From Candidatus Woesearchaeota archaeon (lineage in GTDB: Archaea; Nanobdellota; Nanobdellia; Pacearchaeales; GW2011-AR1), in the NCBI GenBank assembly GCA_964395405.1, contig CAYNAV010000003.1, positions 1 to 38,663 on the forward strand: 38,663 nucleotides of DNA, in the 5' to 3' direction. Both the position numbers and the translations under genes were made by a program. The notes beneath the pieces are model-generated. The model made no database searches, was not told the origin of the DNA, and saw only the letters and a list, made by a program, of their open reading frames with translations. This document shows, one piece after another, positions 7,204-38,613 of the stretch; within the stretch, counting starts at the first letter, position 1; each line of letters opens with the position of its first letter.

Positions 7204-7237
7204 TGAATATCACAAAATACCCATACGCCCCAACCGG
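7204..7237. repeat. 34-bp direct repeat, copy B (tRNA-Asp nt 61-72 plus 22 nt 3' flank)
   Basis: Identical to 23..56. Confidence 0.8.
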
Positions 7238-7297
7238 GGATTGAACCCGGATCCCGGCCGCGACAGGGCCGTGTACTAACCACTATACTATTGAGGC
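7226..7297 (-). tRNA. tRNA-Asp: tRNA-Asp (anticodon GUC), 72 nt, no encoded CCA
   Basis: Reverse complement is GCCTCAA TA GTAT AGTGGTTA GTAC A CGGCC CTGTCGC GGCCG GGAT CCGGG TTCAATC CCCGG TTGGGGC G. The acceptor stem is 7 bp with one G-U. D, anticodon and T stems all pair. The anticodon loop C-T-GTC-G-C gives GUC. Discriminator is G. Confidence 0.9.
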
Positions 7298-7298
7298 A
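7281..7298. repeat. attL-type 18-bp direct repeat (tRNA-Asp nt 1-17 plus 1 nt), identical to 38614..38631
   Basis: cactatactattgaggca at both sites, 18/18. Flanking bases differ on both sides. Confidence 0.8.
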
Positions 7299-16432: not shown

Positions 16433-18277
16433 ATGGAATCTCAGAAGATAATAGATGCAAATGACAGAAGTGTTAGAGAAATCCTAGATAAAGTCAAATA
16501 CCATATAGATGTATTTCAAAGAGAATATAAGTGGGGAGTAAGGCAGATTGAACAATTAATTGATGATATCACTAGTAGATTTCTTGCAGATTATCAAAAT
16601 GCCCATACTAGAGAAGATGTGGAAAAATATGGCAAATATTATTTAGGCTCTATTGTTATCTGTTCAAAAGATGGAAAGAGATCTATAATCGATGGGCAAC
16701 AAAGACTTACTTCTTTAACTCTTTTACTTATTTACTTAAATAATTTACAAAAAGATAGAGAAGATAGTGTACCTATAAAAGATTTAATCTTCTCTGAAAA
16801 ATTTGCTAAAAAATCATTTAATTTGCAAGTAGATGACAGAGAAGAGTGTATTAGCTCATTGTATACCCGGGGGGATTATGATGCTTCAGATAAAAATGAG
16901 TCTGTCAAAAATATTGTTGAGAGATATAGAGATATCGTAGACCTTTTCCCAGAAGAGCTGAAAGGAGACGCTTTACCTTATTTTCTTGATTGGTTAACTG
17001 AAAATGTAATTTTTGTAGAAATATCTACTTTTTCGGATGAAGATGCTTATACTATTTTTGAAACGATGAATGATCGTGGGTTAAATCTTACTTCCGCAGA
17101 GATGTTAAAGGGATATTTAATTTCAAATCTAGATTCGCAAGAAGACAAATTAGAGCTTAATGAATTATGGAAAAAAAGAATATTGCAACTTAAAGAAATA
17201 GATAAAGAAGAAGACTTAGAGTTTTTTAAATCATGGTTAAGGGCCAAATATGCAGAAAGCATTAGACAAGGAAAAAGAGGGTCTGAGAATGAGGATTTTG
17301 AAAAAATAGGTACTAGATTTCATAGCTGGGTGAGAGATAATAAGGAAAAAATCGGATTAAAAAATAAAATGGATTTTTATAAATTCATAAAACAAGACTT
17401 TGATTTTTATATTAAACTTTATTTAAAAATTAATTCTGCCGCAGAAAACCCCCAAAAAAATTTAGAGAGTATTTACTATATCTACCAAAGAGGGTTCACA
17501 TTATATCCTCCCATATTAATGGCTCCAATCAAAATTTCAGATGATGAAGAAACAATTAATAAAAAATTGGCATTAGTCTCTAAGTTTTTGGAAATGTTCA
17601 TTGTTTTTAGATCCATCAACTTTAGGACCTTAGGTTACAGTGCAATTAGATATACAATGTTTAGTCTAGTTAAGGAAATAAGGAATGTCAATATCAAACA
17701 ACTTGCAGAGATTTTAAAAAAGAAAGCATCGGAATTTGAACAAAATCTGGAAGGTATGAAGAATTTAAGATTAAATGGGCAGAATAAACGATTTATCCAC
17801 TTTTTATTAGCTAGGATAACCAAATACATAGAAGATAATTGTAGCATCCCTAGTAACTTTCAAGCTTATATTGACCCAGAATTAAAAAAGCCATTTGAAG
17901 TAGAACATATCTGGTCAGACATTTTTGAGGAACATAAAGAGGAATTTGATCAAAGAGATGATTGGGAAGAGTATCGAAATAAGATAGGAGCATTAATTCT
18001 TTTACCCCGGGGTTTCAATCAAAGTTATGGCAAGCTACCTTATAGTAAAAAACTTCCACATTATTTTGGACAAAACATTTTAGCCAAAACCCTAAATGAG
18101 CAATGTTATAATAAAAACCCGACATTTTTGCAGTTTATCAAGAATTCAAAATTGCCATTCAAGCCATATACAAACTTTAAGAAAAAGGAGATAATTGAAA
18201 GAACAGAATTATACCAAAGAATATGCGAAAAGATATATGATATAAATGAATTTGATAAAATCGCCGGTAATAATTAA
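16433..18277 (+). CDS. GmrSD-family type IV (modification-dependent) restriction enzyme, DUF262 + DUF1524
   Basis: N-terminal IIDGQQRLTSL (DGQQR ParB-like NTPase motif). C-terminal EVEHIWS...NKIGALILLPRGFNQS (His-Me/HNH-like DUF1524). Confidence 0.85.
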   Translation: MESQKIIDANDRSVREILDKVKYHIDVFQREYKWGVRQIEQLIDDITSRFLADYQNAHTREDVEKYGKYYLGSIVICSKDGKRSIIDGQQRLTSLTLLLIYLNNLQKDREDSVPIKDLIFSEKFAKKSFNLQVDDREECISSLYTRGDYDASDKNESVKNIVERYRDIVDLFPEELKGDALPYFLDWLTENVIFVEISTFSDEDAYTIFETMNDRGLNLTSAEMLKGYLISNLDSQEDKLELNELWKKRILQLKEIDKEEDLEFFKSWLRAKYAESIRQGKRGSENEDFEKIGTRFHSWVRDNKEKIGLKNKMDFYKFIKQDFDFYIKLYLKINSAAENPQKNLESIYYIYQRGFTLYPPILMAPIKISDDEETINKKLALVSKFLEMFIVFRSINFRTLGYSAIRYTMFSLVKEIRNVNIKQLAEILKKKASEFEQNLEGMKNLRLNGQNKRFIHFLLARITKYIEDNCSIPSNFQAYIDPELKKPFEVEHIWSDIFEEHKEEFDQRDDWEEYRNKIGALILLPRGFNQSYGKLPYSKKLPHYFGQNILAKTLNEQCYNKNPTFLQFIKNSKLPFKPYTNFKKKEIIERTELYQRICEKIYDINEFDKIAGNN

Positions 18278-18291
18278 AAAGGAGAAAAATT

Positions 18292-19749
18292 ATGTTTGAG
18301 CAAATATTCAAAAATATTGATGACATCCTCTGGAAAGAGGCAGGCTGCGGAAGTGAATTGGATTATGTTGAACAGACCTCTTGGGTTTTATTCCTAAAAT
18401 ATCTTGATGATCTTGAAAAAAAGAAAAGAACTGAGGCAGAGTTGGATGGAAAAGAGTATAAAGAAATTCTTGCTCCAGAATTTAGATGGGATGTTTGGGC
18501 AGTTCCAAAGGATAAAGAAGGAAAACTTGATTACCATAAAGCACTCAGCGGAGATGATTTGAAAGATTTTGTTGACTTAAAACTATTCCCTTATTTAAAA
18601 AAATTTAAAGTTGACGCAGAACATGCAGATACTATTCAATACAAGATTGGAGAGATTTTTAGTGAGATTAAGAATAAAATCCAGAGTGGATACAACTTAA
18701 GAGAGATAATTAATCTTATAGACCAATTGAAGTTTCGTTCTAGCTCTGAAAAACATGAGATGTCGCACCTCTATGAGTCTAAAATCCAGAACATGGGAAA
18801 TGCTGGAAGAAATGGTGGAGAATATTACACCCCACGACCATTAATTAAAACAATTGTTAAAGTTGTAGATCCTAAAATAGGGGATAAGGTTTATGATGGT
18901 GCAGTGGGTTCTGCTGGTTTCTTATGCGAAGCGTTTGAATATCTAAAAGAAAATAATAAAAACCGTTCCACAAAACAAGATGAGCTTTTACAAACAAAGA
19001 CTTTTTATGGAAAAGAAAAGAAATCGCTGGCTTATATTATTGGAATTATGAATATGATTTTTCATGGAATTGAAGCTCCAAATATCCTTCATACTAATAC
19101 ATTGGCAGAAAATCTTTCAGATATACAGGAAAAAGATAGATATAGTATTGTTTTAGCAAATCCACCTTTTGGTGGAAAGGAAAGAGAAGAAGTTCAGCAA
19201 AATTTTCCAATTAAGACAGGGGAGACAGCATTTTTGTTTCTGCAACATTTTATTAAGATATTAAAGGCAGGCGGAAAAGCAGGTATTGTTATTAAGAATA
19301 CATTTTTATCTAACTCCGATAATGCTTCTGTTTCATTAAGGAAGCACTTGCTTGAAAGTTGTAATTTACATACGATATTGGACTTGCCTGGAGGAACTTT
19401 TACAGGTGCAGGAGTAAAAACAGTTATTTTATTTTTTGATAAGGGAACATCAACAAAGAAGGTATGGTACTATTCGCTTAATTTAGATAGAAACTTAGGT
19501 AAAACTAATCCCTTAAGTGAAAATGATTTGGCTGAATTTATTAAACTCCAAAAGACAAAGGCTGATTCTAAAAATTCTTGGACTATAGATATTGCAGACA
19601 TAAATCCAGATACCTTTGACTTATCTGTAAAAAACCCTAATAAGAAAGAAGAAGCACAATTAAGAAAACCAAAAGAGATCTTAGAAGAAATGAAAAGATT
19701 AGATAAAGAAAGCGAGCAAATTCTTAACTCAATTAAGGAGATAGTTTAG
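18292..19749 (+). CDS. hsdM: type I restriction-modification system, N6-adenine DNA methyltransferase subunit
   Basis: GEYYTPRPLIKTIV, VYDGAVGSAGFL (AdoMet motif I), LANPPFGG (NPPF motif IV). GGAG SD upstream. Confidence 0.9.
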   Translation: MFEQIFKNIDDILWKEAGCGSELDYVEQTSWVLFLKYLDDLEKKKRTEAELDGKEYKEILAPEFRWDVWAVPKDKEGKLDYHKALSGDDLKDFVDLKLFPYLKKFKVDAEHADTIQYKIGEIFSEIKNKIQSGYNLREIINLIDQLKFRSSSEKHEMSHLYESKIQNMGNAGRNGGEYYTPRPLIKTIVKVVDPKIGDKVYDGAVGSAGFLCEAFEYLKENNKNRSTKQDELLQTKTFYGKEKKSLAYIIGIMNMIFHGIEAPNILHTNTLAENLSDIQEKDRYSIVLANPPFGGKEREEVQQNFPIKTGETAFLFLQHFIKILKAGGKAGIVIKNTFLSNSDNASVSLRKHLLESCNLHTILDLPGGTFTGAGVKTVILFFDKGTSTKKVWYYSLNLDRNLGKTNPLSENDLAEFIKLQKTKADSKNSWTIDIADINPDTFDLSVKNPNKKEEAQLRKPKEILEEMKRLDKESEQILNSIKEIV

Positions 19750-19751
19750 AG

Positions 19752-20279
19752 ATGGCAGATATAGATCCGATAAAGGCAATTTTAGGACTTGTTTCTGTAT
19801 TTTTCTCTGTTCTTCTTGTTATTTTTCTTTTTTCGTACACTAATGATACCTTGATTAAAGACAAATGTCAGCCCTACCAACAGCAAATTGACCAGAATCA
19901 GATTACAATAACTTCTCTAAACCTAACAGTAAACCAAACCAATAAACTTCTGCAAGAATGCAAGGATAACTATCTAGAATTGATTAAACAAAATATTACT
20001 AAAAAAGACATAGAAGAAATAAAAGGATACTACAACATTACTCAAATCCAAATAGGAGAACTTAATCAAAAATTTGAACAGATAAATACTAATTATCTAA
20101 AGATTTATAATACAATCATAAATAAATATGACATATCATTTGCATTAAATATAGTATTCAGCATAGAAATATTGAGCTTTTTATTTTTAAAGAATGAATT
20201 TGCCTTGATAGTTATAAATTGGTTTAAAAGAAAGAAAAAAGGGTCTGAAACAAATAAAATTCCGATAAAAACAATATGA
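19752..20279 (+). CDS. bitopic/2-TM coiled-coil membrane protein embedded in the type I R-M operon
   Basis: N-terminal TM AILGLVSVFFSVLLVIFLF, an N/Q-rich coiled coil, C-terminal TM FALNIVFSIEILSFLFL. Starts 2 nt after the hsdM stop. Confidence 0.6.
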   Translation: MADIDPIKAILGLVSVFFSVLLVIFLFSYTNDTLIKDKCQPYQQQIDQNQITITSLNLTVNQTNKLLQECKDNYLELIKQNITKKDIEEIKGYYNITQIQIGELNQKFEQINTNYLKIYNTIINKYDISFALNIVFSIEILSFLFLKNEFALIVINWFKRKKKGSETNKIPIKTI

Positions 20280-20908
20280 AAACTAAAGAAAAGAAAATTA
20301 AGAGGTTGGGGGAAAATCTTCATTTGTTTTGGAGCTCTTATCAGCATATGCATGATGTTAGGGAGAGAAAGGCAAAGGGCATGATAGACTTTCTATTGAT
20401 AATTTCTACATTTTTGCCAATTCTTTCAGTTACCCTTTTCACAACTAGCTTATTTAATAATCCTTTAATTTTATTTCCACTAATCCCTCAATTTTTATCT
20501 ATTGTAATTTTATTAAAATATTTTGTCGTTGGAAATCCCTCGGTTCATTGGTTTAAATTAGATAAGAACTTCTTGGCAGGTTTAGATAATGGCAATTTTG
20601 AGACCGAGCTGATAGCTTCTTTGAAACAATTAGAAAATATGACTTTTATTTCTATGAATGAAGAGGGAAAACTGATAAGATATTCTAGAAATTTAATTCT
20701 ATTTTCTTTATTCGCTTTGGCTTTATCAATGATATTTATTTTATTTAATGGAAGTCTTTATTTATACTTTATTTCTCTTATTTTAATTTCTATTTCTGGC
20801 TATATTTTTTTAGTATACTACAAACGAACTCCAGACTTTTCGAAATTAGATGAAGACTTTAACAACTCAAAAAAACTACTCGAGGACTGGATTAAAAATG
20901 AAAAGTAA
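20276..20908 (+). CDS. 4-TM membrane protein embedded in the type I R-M operon
   Basis: ATGA overlap with the upstream gene. Amphipathic lead-in ..RERKAKGMIDF, then two TM hairpins (res ~38-85 and ~139-182) separated by a ~50-aa soluble loop. Confidence 0.6.
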   Translation: MKTKEKKIKRLGENLHLFWSSYQHMHDVRERKAKGMIDFLLIISTFLPILSVTLFTTSLFNNPLILFPLIPQFLSIVILLKYFVVGNPSVHWFKLDKNFLAGLDNGNFETELIASLKQLENMTFISMNEEGKLIRYSRNLILFSLFALALSMIFILFNGSLYLYFISLILISISGYIFLVYYKRTPDFSKLDEDFNNSKKLLEDWIKNEK

Positions 20909-22034
20909 TTGGGTAATCAAGAAGCTAGGGGAAGTTTGTGACAAGGCATCTTCTAATGTTTCTCAAAATCAGTTAGATAATGAAAGCGGGAAATATTCCA
21001 TTTTTGGTGCAAGTGGATTAATAAAAAATGTTAGCTTTTATCATCGAGATAAGCCTTATATATCCATAATTAAAGATGGTGCAGGCATTGGAAGATTGAC
21101 ATTACAACCAGCGTATTCATCAGTTATTGGAACTCTACAATATTTAATCCCGAAGAAAGAAATTGACATTAGCTATCTTTATTATTTTTTACAAAGAATT
21201 GATTTTAATAAACATCGAAATGGTGCGACTATTCCTCATATTTATTTTAAGGATTATTCAGAAGAAGAAATAGGCGTCCCTCCACTTGCCACACAAAAAC
21301 TTATCGTTTTCATCCTAGACAAATCCTTTAAAAAAATAGCCAAAGCAAAAGAAAACGCTGAAAAAAACTTAAAAAACGCCAAAGAGCTTTTTGATAGTCA
21401 TTTACAAAGCGTTTTTGAGAATAAAGGCAAAGGATGGGAAGAAAGAATGCTTAAAGAAATAGGTATTACACAAACGGGGACAACACCCAAAACTATAGAC
21501 AAAAAAAATTACGGAGATTTCATTCCGTTTATAACACCTGCTGACATTGATATCTCTGGTAACGGTGAAATACAATATGACAGCAAGGGGTTGAGCGAGC
21601 AAGGTTTAGATAATGGCAGAAAAATGTTAGCGGGTTCAATCTTGATGGTTTGCATCGGTGCTACTATTGGGAAAGTCGGATTTATTGACCGTGATGTTTC
21701 TTGTAATCAACAAATAAACTCATTGACAGTCAAGAAAGAATTTTCCTCAAAATTTATTTATTACGCATTAAGCACAAAATCTTTTTTTGAACAAGTAATG
21801 CATAATGCTGCTCAGGCAACTTTACCAATTATCAATAAAGGAAAGTGGGAAACACTCATAATTAGTTTTCCAAAATCCCTCCAAGAACAACAATCCATAG
21901 TCTCCAAGCTCGACGCCCTTTCAGCAGAAACCAAGAAACTAGAAGCAATTTATCAACAAAAATTAAAGGATTTAGAAGAACTGAAAAAATCAATTTTACA
22001 AAAAGCTTTTAACGGAGAGTTAGTTAAAGAATAA
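20898..22034 (+). CDS. hsdS: type I R-M specificity subunit (two target-recognition domains)
   Basis: MKSNWVIKKLGEVCD start is typical of TRD1. Central and C-terminal conserved helices (ATQKLIVFILDKSF..., EQQSIVSKLDALSAETKKLEAIYQQKLKDLEELKKSILQKAFNGEL). The track start 20850 is also possible. Confidence 0.85.
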   Translation: MKSNWVIKKLGEVCDKASSNVSQNQLDNESGKYSIFGASGLIKNVSFYHRDKPYISIIKDGAGIGRLTLQPAYSSVIGTLQYLIPKKEIDISYLYYFLQRIDFNKHRNGATIPHIYFKDYSEEEIGVPPLATQKLIVFILDKSFKKIAKAKENAEKNLKNAKELFDSHLQSVFENKGKGWEERMLKEIGITQTGTTPKTIDKKNYGDFIPFITPADIDISGNGEIQYDSKGLSEQGLDNGRKMLAGSILMVCIGATIGKVGFIDRDVSCNQQINSLTVKKEFSSKFIYYALSTKSFFEQVMHNAAQATLPIINKGKWETLIISFPKSLQEQQSIVSKLDALSAETKKLEAIYQQKLKDLEELKKSILQKAFNGELVKE

Positions 22035-22035
22035 C

Positions 22036-24348
22036 ATGAGCGAACAAGACACAAGAGCAGAGTTAATTGAACCAAAACTTAAAGAAAGTGGTTGGGGAAT
22101 TATTGAAAATACTAAAATTAGAAGGGAGTATCCCATAACTGCTGGAAGAATACAGATTGGTGGAAATAGAGCAAAACCCCTATTCGCAGATTTTGTTTTA
22201 GAGTTTAATGGAAGAAAACTTGCAGTTATTGAAGCTAAAAAAAGTTCTTTGAATGTTACGGAAGGTAGAGCCCAGGCAGTAGAATATGCTAAAAAACTAC
22301 AAATTGAGTTTACTTTTACAACCAACGGGAAAGAGATCTATCAAATAGATATGGAAACTGGGAAAGAAGCATTAGTCAAAAGTTTTCCAACCCCAGAAGA
22401 GATTTGGAATAAGACCTTTAGAGTTCAAAATGAATGGAAAGATAAATTTAATGCGATTCAATTCGGAGGAAAAAATAAGCCAAGATTTTATCAAGAAATT
22501 GCAATAAATAGAACCTTAGATGCTATTGCAGAAGATAAAAATAGACTATTATTAACTCTTGCTACGGGAACTGGAAAAACAGCTATTGCTTTTGAAATTG
22601 CTTGGAAACTCTTTTATTCAAAATGGAATCTAAGGAAAGATGGCTCTAGGCATCCCCGGGTTTTATTTTTAACAGATAGAAATAATTTAGCAAATCAGGC
22701 ATTTAATGAGTTCTCACCTTTTCCAGAAGACGCGTTAGTCAGGATTAAACCAAAAGAAATAAACAAAAAAGGTAAAGTTCCAACAAATGGAAGCATTTTC
22801 TTTACAATTTTTCAAACTTTCATGTGTGGAAAAGATAATAGCCCTTATTTTGGACAGTATCCTAAAGATTTTTTTGATCTTATTATAATCGATGAATGCC
22901 ATAGGGGAGGAGCAAATGATGAAGGTAATTGGAGGGGGATATTAGAATATTTCTCCCCAGCAGTCCAACTTGGTTTAACAGCAACACCTAAAAGGAGAGA
23001 GAATGCAGATACTTACAAGTATTTTGGAAATCCATTATATACCTATTCACTAAAAGAAGGAATTGAAGATGGATTCTTGACGCCATTTAAAGTTAGAAGA
23101 TTTAAGACCACCTTAGACGAATATGTATATACATCTGATGATGATGTTGTTGAGGGTGAAGTGGAGGTGGGAAAAATCTATCAAGAAACAGATTTTAATA
23201 AAATAATTGAAATAAAGGAAAGAGAAGCGAAAAGAGTAAAACTCTTTATGGGCGAAATAAATCAGAATGAAAAAACAATTGTTTTTTGTGCAACCCAAGA
23301 CCATGCTTTAGTTGTTAGAGACCTTATAAACCAATATAAGAAAAGCAAGGATGTAAATTATTGCGTCAGAGTAGCTGCAAATGATGGGGCTCTTGGAGAT
23401 CAATACCTCGAAGAATTTAGAGATAATGAAAAAACAATTCCTACAATTTTAACAACATCACAAAAACTTTCAACAGGGGTTGATGCAAGAAATATAAGAA
23501 ATATTATTTTAATGAGACCTGTAAAGCAAATAATTGAGTTTAAACAAATCGTAGGTAGGGGAACTAGATTATTTGATGAAAAGGAATTTTTCACAATTTA
23601 TGATTTTGTTGATGCTTACAGAAATTTTAATGATCCCGAATGGGACGGAGAACCTTTAGAACCTGTTTTAACAGAAAAAATAGCAAAACCAATGAAAATA
23701 AAAGAAAAAGGAGATGAATACCCAGAAAGTTATGAAGAAGAGTTAGAGGGAAAGAAAAAGAAAATAAAGATTAAGCTCGCAGATGGAAAAGAAAGAGAAA
23801 TCCAGCATATTAGCACAACGTATTTCATCAGCAAAAATGGAAAACCGATTTCATCAACTGAATTCTTACAAAATTTATTTGGTGACTTACCTAAATTATT
23901 TAAAAATGAACAAAAATTAAGAGATATTTGGAGTAGTCCAATAACAAGAAAATCATTTTTGCTAAAACTTGAAGAAGCCGGATATGGCGTAGAAGTACTA
24001 AAAGAAGCTCAAAAAATTATTGTGGGTGCTGAGAAGAGTGATTTATTTGATGTTTTGGAGTATATTGCCTCTGCAAAAAAGCCAATTTCACGAGAAGAAA
24101 GAGTTGCAAAATCCCAAAATAAGATATTTGAAGATCTAGACATCAATCAAAAGGAATTTTTAGATTTTGTTTTGACCAAATATGTGGAGTCTGGAGTTGA
24201 AGAATTAGATTTAGAGAAATTATCACCCCTATTGAGATTAAAGTATCAAGAAGTTGAAGATGCTACTGACTTGCTTGGCGGAGTTAAAAAAATAAGAGAA
24301 ACATTTATTGGATTTCAAAAACATTTATATGCTGCTAAAAAAACTTAA
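22036..24348 (+). CDS. hsdR: type I R-M restriction subunit (nuclease + SF2 helicase/translocase, EcoEI-R-type C-terminus)
   Basis: MSEQDTRAELIEPKL, ADFVL..LAVIEAKK (D..E-x-K), LATGTGKT (motif I), IIIDECHRG (DEAH-type motif II), LGLTATP (III), QIVGRGTR (VI). C-terminal FLDFVLTKYVESG..L helical domain. Confidence 0.9.
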   Translation: MSEQDTRAELIEPKLKESGWGIIENTKIRREYPITAGRIQIGGNRAKPLFADFVLEFNGRKLAVIEAKKSSLNVTEGRAQAVEYAKKLQIEFTFTTNGKEIYQIDMETGKEALVKSFPTPEEIWNKTFRVQNEWKDKFNAIQFGGKNKPRFYQEIAINRTLDAIAEDKNRLLLTLATGTGKTAIAFEIAWKLFYSKWNLRKDGSRHPRVLFLTDRNNLANQAFNEFSPFPEDALVRIKPKEINKKGKVPTNGSIFFTIFQTFMCGKDNSPYFGQYPKDFFDLIIIDECHRGGANDEGNWRGILEYFSPAVQLGLTATPKRRENADTYKYFGNPLYTYSLKEGIEDGFLTPFKVRRFKTTLDEYVYTSDDDVVEGEVEVGKIYQETDFNKIIEIKEREAKRVKLFMGEINQNEKTIVFCATQDHALVVRDLINQYKKSKDVNYCVRVAANDGALGDQYLEEFRDNEKTIPTILTTSQKLSTGVDARNIRNIILMRPVKQIIEFKQIVGRGTRLFDEKEFFTIYDFVDAYRNFNDPEWDGEPLEPVLTEKIAKPMKIKEKGDEYPESYEEELEGKKKKIKIKLADGKEREIQHISTTYFISKNGKPISSTEFLQNLFGDLPKLFKNEQKLRDIWSSPITRKSFLLKLEEAGYGVEVLKEAQKIIVGAEKSDLFDVLEYIASAKKPISREERVAKSQNKIFEDLDINQKEFLDFVLTKYVESGVEELDLEKLSPLLRLKYQEVEDATDLLGGVKKIRETFIGFQKHLYAAKKT

Positions 24349-37484: not shown

Positions 37485-38567
37485 TTAAAACACTTTTAAA
37501 TTATCAACTAAACCCTTAATTTCATTCTTAAATTTTTTGTCATCAATTTTACCTAATTCTTTTTCAAGTAAAAGCTTCGTTAAACGGCTTAGGTTTTCAA
37601 TCTCTAATTCTAACTTATGTTTCTTTTCTGGGGGCATATCCTCAATTTTGTAAATAGTCTTACTCATTGCTTCCTTAACATCTTTGTTGCTTAAATGAGT
37701 ATAAACATCGCCCATACTCTTGGAATGTCCTAAGAATTTCTGTGCTGTCTTATCTGGTATTCCCGCATTGGTATAAAGTTCTGTTGCTCTGGAATGTCTT
37801 AAAATATAGGGATAAACACTTCTCCCTAAAACCTTTTCAGATATTCGCCCTAACCAAACAGCAGGAAGGCTTTTATCCATTGGTTTGGTGTCATCCTTTG
37901 GTGCGGGAAAAACTAAATCTGTTTTGCTTTGTTCTTTTAACTTCTTCAAATAGAATGTAGCCTCCTTAACATAAACACTTCTTGCCTTATGGGTTTTACT
38001 TGCATAAATGTTTATTTCTGTTATCTCATCCTTATCAATATCAAACTTTATGTTTTTCCAGAGTAATGTTCTTAATTCAATAGGCCTTAATCCAGATTCA
38101 TATAAAGCCATAAAAAAGGCTTTCCAGAATAGTTTAGGCTCTGCTTTCATTATTGCCTCAACATCTTCTTTTTTCAGGAGAGTATCTGCGTTTATCTTTT
38201 CCTCATTAATTCGCATTATCAGTTTAATATCTTCTAAATTGCTAAATCTCTCACTCCAATCTTTAAACTTCCATTTCAAAAACCTTTTAATTGTGAACTT
38301 TAGATCATTTCTTGTTGATTGTGTCTTATTTGAATTGTTTAATAATGCTAAGAAATCTCTTAAGTCTTGCAGGGTGGCTTTATCCAAAGGTTTCTTAATC
38401 AAATACCTAAACTCTGTTAAGCCTCTTTGATTATTGTCCAATCTTCTCTGGGATTTAGAAGTAATTGAAACATACTTAATAAAATCCTGAATCTCTTTTT
38501 GTTCAGGTTTAGGGAGTTTTGAGTATATCTCCTGGACTTCTCCCCTTTTGAATGTTGGGTATTTCAT
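37485..38567 (-). CDS. int: tyrosine recombinase / integrase (360 aa from ATG 38567; track start is GTG 38609)
   Basis: GLRPIELRTL (Arg I), THKARSV (Lys), ILRHSRAT (H-x-x-R), FLGHS (His/Trp position), DVYTHL (Tyr nucleophile). Confidence 0.85.
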   Translation of the reverse strand: MKYPTFKRGEVQEIYSKLPKPEQKEIQDFIKYVSITSKSQRRLDNNQRGLTEFRYLIKKPLDKATLQDLRDFLALLNNSNKTQSTRNDLKFTIKRFLKWKFKDWSERFSNLEDIKLIMRINEEKINADTLLKKEDVEAIMKAEPKLFWKAFFMALYESGLRPIELRTLLWKNIKFDIDKDEITEINIYASKTHKARSVYVKEATFYLKKLKEQSKTDLVFPAPKDDTKPMDKSLPAVWLGRISEKVLGRSVYPYILRHSRATELYTNAGIPDKTAQKFLGHSKSMGDVYTHLSNKDVKEAMSKTIYKIEDMPPEKKHKLELEIENLSRLTKLLLEKELGKIDDKKFKNEIKGLVDNLKVF

Positions 38568-38588
38568 AGAATATAAACCCAATAGCAC

Positions 38589-38596
38589 TATATAAA
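38589..38596 (-). promoter_or_regulatory. TTTATATA box of the integrase gene, between ATG and attR
   Basis: The minus strand reads tttatata, 21 nt upstream of ATG 38567. Confidence 0.4.
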
Positions 38597-38613
38597 GTTT
38601 ACTTATCACCTTA

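Follow-up and report, generated by a model that had tools for sequence, protein, structure and literature searches.

Two orphan membrane protein families, X and Y, encoded within type I restriction-modification operons of DPANN archaea

Here we describe two genes, designated X and Y, that lie between hsdM and hsdS of a type I restriction-modification (R-M) operon in Candidatus Woesearchaeota archaeon (assembly GCA_964395405.1). The stretch of DNA analysed, referred to as the window, is the entire contig CAYNAV010000003.1 with a length of 38,663 nucleotides (38.7 kb) and a G+C content of 32%. The genome has a size of 1.0 Mb and is 89% complete, and the relatives of the window carry the labels Woesearchaeota or Nanoarchaeia (DPANN archaea). 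The genes hsdM, X, Y, hsdS and hsdR form a single, tightly packed operon on the plus strand, in which neighbouring genes overlap or are separated by 1–2 nt, and this operon is the sole type I locus of the assembly. A preliminary description of the DNA had placed the stop of hsdM at 19749 and the starts of X, Y and hsdS at 19752, 20276 and 20898, respectively, and all of these coordinates were confirmed:

18292–19749, plus strand: hsdM, type I methyltransferase subunit, 485 amino acids (aa); TAG stop at 19747–19749
19735–19740, plus strand: AAGGAG, putative Shine-Dalgarno sequence within the 3' end of hsdM, 11 nt 5' of the ATG of X
19752–20279, plus strand: X, open reading frame (ORF) of 175 aa, starting 2 nt after hsdM
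20276–20908, plus strand: Y, ORF of 210 aa; TAA stop at 20906–20908
20882–20886, plus strand: GAGGA, putative Shine-Dalgarno sequence within the 3' end of Y, 5' of the hsdS start
20898–22034, plus strand: hsdS, specificity subunit, 378 aa; ATG at 20898 inside the end of Y
22036–24348, plus strand: hsdR, restriction/translocase subunit, 770 aa, beginning one base past the hsdS stop

The host operon is solidly identified as a type I R-M system, as all three subunits score far above cut-offs and are encoded on one strand. HsdM matches Pfam N6_Mtase (6.8e-63) and HsdM_N (1.8e-09) as well as PADLOC MTase_I (3.2e-164). HsdS matches Pfam Methylase_S in two stretches (3.6e-39) and PADLOC Specificity_I from model position 1 (8.6e-58), and HsdR matches ResIII (1.8e-38), EcoEI_R_C (9.7e-26), HSDR_N and PADLOC REase_I (1.5e-132). 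X and Y overlap in an ATGA motif at 20276–20279, and Y overlaps hsdS by 11 nt, from the hsdS ATG at 20898 to the end of the Y stop at 20908. The hsdS start at 20898 was preferred over 20850, as it fits the HsdS model from position 1 and agrees with the start in the closest relative, L030 (loci are denoted by L numbers throughout).

Whether X and Y are tied to R-M genes in other genomes had been set beforehand as a refutation test, and the tie recurred in both families. All relatives of X and Y were found in DPANN archaeal genomes or on unlabelled metagenome contigs. For Y, the census comprises 17 distinct loci from assemblies, species-representative genomes and metagenome contigs. In 8 of these loci Y is the gene directly upstream of hsdS, and in 11 of the 17 it is found no further than two genes from type I-like genes, with the following arrangements:

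Y directly 5' of hsdS and overlapping it: window, L030, L001, L004, L003, L031, L033, L034
Y downstream of hsdM: L037, L041
Y two genes past a nuclease-methylase fusion and HsdS: L024
Y abutting a NERD-DUF2075 helicase gene: L022
Y next to a lone N6/N4 methylase gene: L036
Y after Dph6 in a housekeeping block ScpA ... Dph6-Y ... HisRS, 36–39% identity: L024, L025
Y beside MCM, split into two ORFs: L035
Y with neighbours of no known kind: L023, L042

According to a rough estimate, a random gene in genomes of ~1 Mb would come to lie directly 5' of hsdS far less often than once in 1000. The position of Y before hsdS is kept across different gene orders, which comprise M-..-Y-S-R, M-..-Y-S with R on the other strand, R-..-Y-S-HEPN-M and R-114aa-Y-S (M, S and R denoting the respective hsd genes). 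The window, L030, L001, L004 and L003 each carry a full-length hsdR 3' of hsdS. Between the window and L001, Y proteins are 67% identical, as compared to 35% for HsdM and 34% for HsdR; between the window and L003 the corresponding values are 49%, 31% and 28%. Since the identity of Y is far above that of HsdM and HsdR, the pairing of Y with type I genes must recur in at least three divergent type I families, represented by window/L030, L001/L004 and L003. In L037, Y is preceded by an hsdM of a fourth divergent kind. The maximum-likelihood tree of the Y family has R-M-linked members on both sides of the midpoint root, with the Dph6-linked pair nested beside L041 and L037, both of which are hsdM-linked.

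Further information on how Y spreads came from L004. Here, the Y ORF opens with a relic of an hsdS 5' end of ~25 codons (L004:6001–6110; compare L001:6642–6750). Local alignment of the DNA with the hsdS 5' end of L001 yields a score of 58 over nt 13–110 of the ORF; the two are near-identical over approximately the first 70 nt, the encoded N-termini match, and the same hsdS 5' end is present in L001 and L034. The relic indicates that a Y-hsdS block recombined into a resident hsdS. Two simpler scenarios were rejected on these grounds: Y as a fixed subunit of a single R-M lineage is at odds with its presence in no fewer than three divergent families of type I systems as well as beside other genes, and vertical co-inheritance of Y with the operon alone is at odds with 67% identity of Y versus 35% of HsdM and with the hsdS relic in L004, which point to movement as a cassette.

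Some Y loci showed additional features. At L024:9065–10362 and L025:7862–9264, which belong to two genera, the Y homologues overlap the stop codon of the gene for Dph6 (diphthamide synthase, PF01902). An exonuclease VII (xseA-like) gene precedes Y at L022:8157–12494 and L023:8775–13414, both on the minus strand. In L022, Y abuts the gene of the NERD-DUF2075 protein (SLFN-g3 helicase), and Y itself is followed by the gene of another protein with multiple transmembrane (TM) helices. The homologue beside MCM (L035:1139–1780) is divided into two ORFs of 95 and 117 aa and is probably a pseudogene or the result of an assembly error.

For X, the census comprises 13 distinct strong loci, at which the neighbouring R-M genes were confirmed by Pfam searches or precomputed Pfam domains. 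Eleven of these loci have X within a type I or type I-like operon:

X in a type I or type I-like operon: window, L030, L009, L011, L045, L047, L048, L049, L050, L051, L069
X adjoining a C5 methylase gene: L007
X adjoining a DUF3800 gene, 4.7 kb from a type III-like methylase gene: L068

The locus L050 is part of a complete Forterrea genome, and the hosts of X comprise Woesearchaeota, Pacearchaeota, Nanoarchaeia, Forterrea and Aenigmatarchaeota. The position of X within the operon varies, being either M-X-S or S-X-R, and a weak X-like protein is encoded after a type III mod-res pair in L071. Scans of viral contigs with the X and Y families yielded no matches and gave no sign that these are viral genes. 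The linkage of X and Y to R-M systems is thus evident from the operon layout, from the families and from recurrent, independent embedding.

Two observations concern the X-bearing operons themselves. L047 (CAZIUU010000006.1) stems from a metagenome-assembled genome labelled 'uncultured Methanosarcinales archaeon' and holds a DPANN-type type I operon with an X of 47% identity; this reflects either a binning error or a transfer between symbiont and host lineages. In X-bearing operons of one type I family, a YgjP-like gene (PF01863) of 95–97 aa lies directly 3' of an hsdR of ~965 aa (L009:10348–10635, L047:9406–9699, L049:9361–9654 and, on the minus strand, L069:3304–3597).

How special this linkage is depends on the frequency with which type I operons of these archaea harbour extra genes. 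In a base-rate survey of 30 hsdS loci of the same order, hsdM was located immediately upstream of hsdS in only a few cases. Small extra genes are the rule in these operons, and many of them encode membrane proteins. What is distinctive in the present case is that particular families, X and above all Y, keep so faithfully to R-M operons. The distribution of both families is patchy, with an occurrence in ~1.5% of related genomes, which is typical of accessory rather than core genes. Y gave 6 strong matches in 401 genomes of the order, as compared to hsdS in 48 of 151 genomes. We conclude that X and Y are probably genuine accessory genes of R-M operons, and neither an obligate pair nor mere passengers.

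That the two genes do not form a pair follows from their distribution. The preliminary description had regarded X and Y as nested in the R-M operon through translational coupling rather than as an independent cassette, and proposed a survey for the layout hsdM-X-Y-hsdS. The coupling holds for the window, and the layout recurs in L030, but nowhere else among the loci found. Hence, an obligate X-Y pair was rejected, as the two genes co-occur only in the window and L030. Even in L030 the ATGA coupling is not kept, X and Y being separated by a gap of 77 nt. The operon DNAs of window and L030 are ~81–87% identical, and blastn revealed that this similarity is mosaic: it sets in at the start of hsdM, breaks off at 19794 after 43 nt of X, returns at 20155–20241 and again from 20267, thereby covering the second TM segment of X, Y and the first half of hsdS. 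The intervening part of X stands out as a separate block:

19795–20154, plus strand: variable block of X (end of TM1 and ectodomain), no detectable DNA similarity to L030 by blastn

At the protein level, X is only 46% identical between window and L030, whereas the flanking Y and HsdM are 92–93% identical (HsdM 93%). The DNA encoding the second target-recognition domain of HsdS (~21445–21868) likewise has no similarity to L030 before similarity resumes in hsdR, which is a classical specificity swap. The ectodomain of X has thus been exchanged or diversified in the same manner as a specificity domain, a pattern that would be expected for a surface protein engaged in an arms race. In evolutionary terms X and Y are independent cassettes, separate and swappable, and in this respect the earlier view of the two genes had to be abandoned.

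The preliminary description had also read X as a TM/coiled-coil/TM protein and Y as a four-TM protein, and both architectures are supported by hydropathy and AlphaFold2 models. For Y, TM helices are located at residues ~37–57, 62–84, 138–156 and 161–182. In the model (pLDDT, the predicted local distance difference test, 74.8; pTM, the predicted template modelling score, 0.56), a Lys/Arg-rich N-terminal helix continues directly into TM1, the outer loops between TM1 and TM2 and between TM3 and TM4 comprise 4–5 and 4 residues, respectively, a helical segment of ~50 residues (85–137) separates TM2 from TM3, and a further helix follows TM4. The first 36 residues contain 10 lysines and arginines, and an NGS sequon recurs in the second outer loop in 7 of 16 sequences. 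Based on the charge bias, the tiny outer loops and this sequon, Y is predicted to have its N-terminus inside, with the N-terminal helix, the central helical segment and the C-terminal helix, that is its soluble mass, facing the cytoplasm.

Y has 16 homologues with 49–92% identity, and an exhaustive profile search of 1.84 billion representative proteins retrieved only 77 relatives, the full-length ones measuring ~200 aa. Fifteen residues are invariant. They cluster in the juxtamembrane helix (W19, S21, Y22, Q23, D27 and R29) and inside TM1 to TM3 (T45, P48, P68, Q72, S144 and S151), the others being W92, K117 and E120; the best-conserved part is the cytoplasmic helix plus TM1–TM2. Invariant polar and proline residues within the membrane go beyond the needs of a passive anchor. 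The ratio of nonsynonymous to synonymous substitutions (dN/dS) of Y is 0.06 for window versus L030, with values of 0.025 for hsdM and 0.07 for hsdR. Y is therefore under strong purifying selection inside the R-M operon.

For X, there are 17 homologues besides its own entry, with 42–50% identity; X and Y are thus real genes and no chance ORFs. X consists of a short acidic N-terminus, TM1, a pair of long helices, a second hydrophobic segment and a KRKKK tail. Hydropathy places the TM segments, which flank the long helices, at residues ~9–30 and 127–146, and the AlphaFold2 model folds two long helices (6–79 and 84–165) into a hairpin (pLDDT 71.7, pTM 0.28). Sequons for N-glycosylation are conserved at N61 (11/18), N81 (15/18) and N95 (18/18), as are cysteines at C39 (17/18) and C70 (18/18). 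On average, members of the X family contain 3.1 N-x-S/T sequons, as compared to 1.7 expected from shuffling. Accordingly modelled, X is predicted to be a two-TM hairpin with both termini inside, which would expose an antiparallel coiled coil of ~95 aa on the outside and retain the Lys-rich tail in the cytoplasm. The outward orientation of the coiled coil is deduced from the basic tail, which should remain inside, and is supported by the conserved sequons and cysteines.

Database searches provided no name for either protein. X, Y and up to 58 family members had no usable match in Pfam, NCBIfam, PHROGs or PADLOC (hmmscan cut-offs: E up to 0.1 for X and Y, up to 1 for the 16 close Y members and up to 0.01 for the 58 representatives); there was scattered, sub-threshold membrane-protein noise (NapE, DUF2207_C, MtN3, and DUF2721 in 5 of 58). 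Sequence profile searches of the PDB returned nothing for Y and only coiled-coil noise from ATP synthase subunit b for X. In Foldseek searches of PDB and BFVD, the best E-values for Y were 1.3 and 0.74, respectively, and X had no match at all. Both are thus orphan families, named by no library or fold search.

These searches also bear on a resemblance to TM effectors of the CBASS and Pycsar type that the preliminary description had noted as an impression. Indeed, effectors such as PycTM (PF18967), SLATT, S-4TM/Cap14 and Cap15 share with X and Y the small multi-TM format, the location in defence operons and a charged helix preceding paired TM helices. However, the operon lacks a cyclase or CD-NTase, and X and Y are devoid of a nucleotide-binding domain. 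The PycTM, SLATT, S-4TM and Cap15 profiles gave no consistent hmmscan match to X, Y, the 16 close or the 58 distant members, apart from a single DUF4231 match at 0.0011 in one of the 58 family representatives, and a search of the genome of the window with PF18967 found nothing. In the Foldseek check, a SLATT protein ranked 28th with an E-value of 2.4. With no profile match, no fold match and no cyclase partner, the resemblance was not upheld.

As to the function of Y, we tentatively propose that it may be a guard-type effector or sensor docked on HsdS or on the HsdM2S core. The closest experimental precedent for a membrane effector caged by an R-M core is RonA, a better one than PrrC. RonA of the Ronin system of E. 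coli ECOR55 is a TM protein of 61 aa that is tightly linked to hsdS-hsdM, toxic alone, silenced by HsdMS and released by Ocr, ArdA and Aop1 (bioRxiv 10.1101/2023.04.06.535777). In both cases the gene of a TM protein lies tight to hsdS or hsdM, Y overlapping hsdS by 11 nt and X starting 2 nt past hsdM. However, Ronin is set apart by size and architecture, as RonA has one predicted TM helix, whereas Y has 210 aa and four TM helices with cytoplasmic helices and X has 175 aa and two TM helices with an ectodomain. Moreover, Ronin is bacterial, whereas X and Y were found only in DPANN archaea. PrrC and RloC, the former in the EcoprrI arrangement hsdM-hsdS-prrC-hsdR, provide the parallel of an accessory gene embedded within a type I operon and the logic of a guard, that is a latent effector held by the R-M complex and freed upon inhibition of restriction. 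PrrC is a soluble ABC-ATPase joined to a tRNA-cutting nuclease, whereas X and Y are integral membrane proteins, in which Pfam, NCBIfam and PADLOC detected no ATPase or nuclease.

In this scenario, Y would be produced in fixed proportion to HsdS, since its gene overlaps the hsdS start, and would bind to the core, HsdS/HsdM2S, from the cytoplasmic side of the membrane, a contact that is presumed. Y would stay silent as long as the core is intact. Once the core has been blocked or titrated, be it by a DNA-mimic anti-restriction protein or otherwise, Y set free could oligomerise through its strongly conserved TM1–TM2 hairpin and dissipate the membrane potential, thereby aborting infection. We lean towards this role because RonA, the only characterised TM protein wired to HsdMS, works in this way, because Y is co-translated with HsdS, the subunit that nucleates the complex, and because the best-conserved parts of Y are the cytoplasmic helix and the intramembrane polar and proline residues. 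X had been suspected to be an effector held by the R-M complex as well. As the complex is cytoplasmic, whereas X is predicted to have most of its length outside the cell, X does not fit this role. Rather, X may display a glycosylated, cysteine-bearing coiled coil on the cell surface and act outside the cell independently of Y, where it could sense or obstruct the entry of viruses or DNA.

Several points weigh against Y being a caged effector. Y is far more conserved than the HsdS and HsdM to which it would have to bind, which disfavours a co-evolving interface. About one-third of the Y loci have no adjoining hsdS (L022, L023, L024, L025, L035, L036 and L042), as would not be expected of a toxin that must always be caged. 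In contrast to Ronin, which lacks hsdR and functions as a decoy, the operons described here retain hsdR and are complete type I systems. Since embedded membrane genes are common in the order, embedding alone is weak evidence of partnership. The topologies of X and Y rest on hydropathy, charge bias, sequon conservation and models of medium confidence, the pTM of X being as low as 0.28. Finally, RNA-seq runs holding the sequence were looked for and none was found; only lake-water DNA metagenomes hold it.

Some of these points would be accommodated if Y, X and other embedded TM proteins were non-lethal organisers or sensors that position the restriction enzyme at the membrane, where foreign DNA comes in, an explanation that we regard as doubtful. 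Placement could involve binding of HsdS or, alternatively, co-translational membrane insertion that holds the polycistronic mRNA at the membrane, where the coupled hsdS and hsdR would then be translated. As a sensor, Y or X might perceive perturbation of the envelope and license local restriction, as do KwaA of Kiwa and ZorAB of Zorya. Translational coupling of Y to hsdS, which is present in every Y-hsdS locus, speaks for this idea, and so does the occurrence of several unrelated TM families upstream of hsdS, which generic targeting explains better than many distinct toxins would. Stand-alone and housekeeping-linked copies of Y pose no problem for a non-toxic protein, and association of EcoKI with the cytoplasmic membrane has been reported. 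Kiwa (PMC11785009) and Zorya (PMC11890865), which couple membrane-embedded sensors to DNA-targeting effectors, provide precedents. The likeness is one of analogy only, namely membrane components genetically coupled to DNA-targeting effectors, with KwaA being a small multi-TM protein; the operon described here has no KwaB or ZorC/D partners, its partner being a classical type I enzyme. Homology of X or Y to KwaA or ZorAB was not detected by PADLOC-DB 2.0, in which neither protein matched any model, including those for Kiwa, Zorya and the embedded HEC/PDC candidates. In addition, most type I systems evidently work without Y, given its rarity (6/401) as opposed to hsdS in about one-third of the genomes, and the invariant intramembrane residues of Y exceed what an anchor needs.

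A bolder version of this idea, which we consider very improbable, holds that DPANN type I enzymes are membrane-organised machines, in which Y would be an inner-face adaptor nucleating HsdS/HsdM2S and hence HsdR, while surface proteins like X, whose ectodomains can be exchanged, would tag or control the places at which foreign DNA comes in. If true, restriction would be coupled to the entry of foreign DNA from viruses or from the symbionts' host cell, and might even process host DNA as a supply of nucleotides for organisms unable to make their own. The unrelated TM families at the same operon position would then represent alternative versions of a 'fourth subunit'.

It appears unlikely that X and Y are independent defence cargo, that is self-contained membrane-level defences, for instance of a superinfection-exclusion-like kind, which reside in permissive type I hot spots and are functionally unlinked to the enzyme. 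There is ample documentation of type I operons that harbour unrelated defence genes. One such case is TgvAB, a system in its own right within a type I cluster (PMC11411939). In the parts of the survey by Payne et al. considered here (bioRxiv 10.1101/2024.01.29.577857), which used RefSeq genomes, defence functions are over-represented among nested genes, PrrC is hardly found outside the type I operon context, and the characterised examples are soluble nucleases or ATPases, unlike X and Y. As in these cassettes, the extra genes lie nested between hsd genes and are swapped between relatives. In Pyrococci, variable clusters of membrane proteins beside R-M genes have been suggested to be membrane-associated defence systems (Makarova et al., PMC4158269). 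As far as hidden Markov models can tell, X and Y have no sequence relation to the families of Payne et al., TgvAB, Kiwa, Zorya or the Pyrococci. The role of cargo would agree with the independent assortment of X and Y, the varying position of X in the operon and its other settings, namely next to a C5 methylase in L007, in the vicinity of a type III-like methylase in L068 and, as a weak version, behind a type III mod-res pair in L071. The swapped ectodomain of X and the fact that Y is better conserved than its R-M neighbours would fit as well. However, simple hitch-hiking fails to explain why, across gene orders and at least three R-M families, Y always directly precedes hsdS and overlaps it, and leaves recombination of Y and hsdS as a block unaccounted for. 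With outer loops of ~4–5 residues, a block of entry is unlikely for Y, but still plausible for X.

That X and Y do not serve defence at all, being ordinary DPANN proteins for envelope or membrane homeostasis captured repeatedly by mobile R-M operons, or decaying passengers, is quite unlikely: the Y homologues in the ScpA ... Dph6-Y ... HisRS block of two genera, the split copy beside MCM and the lack of a known domain in either protein would suit this view, but it conflicts with the dN/dS of Y inside the R-M operon, the patchiness of both families, the R-M linkage across distant DPANN lineages and several R-M families, and the nesting of the Dph6-linked pair among hsdM-linked members of the tree.

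It is already known that accessory genes, including one for a membrane effector, are embedded in type I operons. New are the X and Y families, their archaeal setting, the locked position of Y at hsdS and the swapped ectodomain of X. CRISPR is generally rare in DPANN archaea, and RefSeq is expected to hold few of their genomes. With genomes of ~1 Mb, type I restriction is nevertheless kept in about one-third of those surveyed (the 48 of 151 with hsdS). To our knowledge, archaeal membrane proteins wired to classical restriction have not been described before. If X and Y are true partners of the enzyme, they would be the first, and either the guard principle of Ronin and PrrC or the entry-site defence of Kiwa and Zorya would reach into a further domain of life and would apply to complete type I systems. 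Should they be independent cargo, they would still represent two new candidate defence families in a lineage whose defence against viruses is almost unexplored. The fixed position of Y 5' of hsdS across divergent type I families and the exchange of the X ectodomain provide handles for experiments.

Turning to the surroundings of the operon in the window, upstream of hsdM there are genes for a GmrSD-type enzyme, a DUF2779 nuclease and a UDG-like protein, the first of these directly adjoining hsdM:

16433–18277, plus strand: GmrSD-type (DUF262/DUF1524) type IV restriction gene (GmrSD_N 8.4e-35, GmrSD_C 1.6e-06)

This gene matches PADLOC HEC-06 and lies outside the unit conserved with L030, as similarity begins only at 18292. 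The contig also carries a tRNA-Asp gene (7225–7298, minus strand) and, at its far end, a tyrosine-recombinase (Phage_integrase) gene (37485–38609, minus strand), and the defence block may reside on an integrated or mobile element.

Two additional families located directly 5' of hsdS emerged from the base-rate survey. The first comprises proteins of ~160–206 aa (L077:2055–2630, minus strand; L086:404–994, plus strand; L089:1959–2579, minus strand), which have no Pfam match and consist of one N-terminal TM helix followed by a KDFFIPIFFKPKLKI-type segment, the N-terminus reading roughly WALGISI...KDFFIPIFFKPKLKI. Possibly similar proteins with a TM helix plus KPK are encoded at L024:7107–7619 and L050:6492–6974, both on the plus strand. 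This single-TM family could be a third family of R-M-embedded membrane proteins. The second family is soluble and measures ~190 aa; its members lie immediately 5' of hsdS at L074:2012–2584 (minus strand), L095:386–952 (plus strand), L098:1944–2531 (minus strand) and L051:2011–2595 (plus strand), and have an N-terminus resembling MKTKEEIIKKFEEFNKEAKEI..SLSFKDKL.

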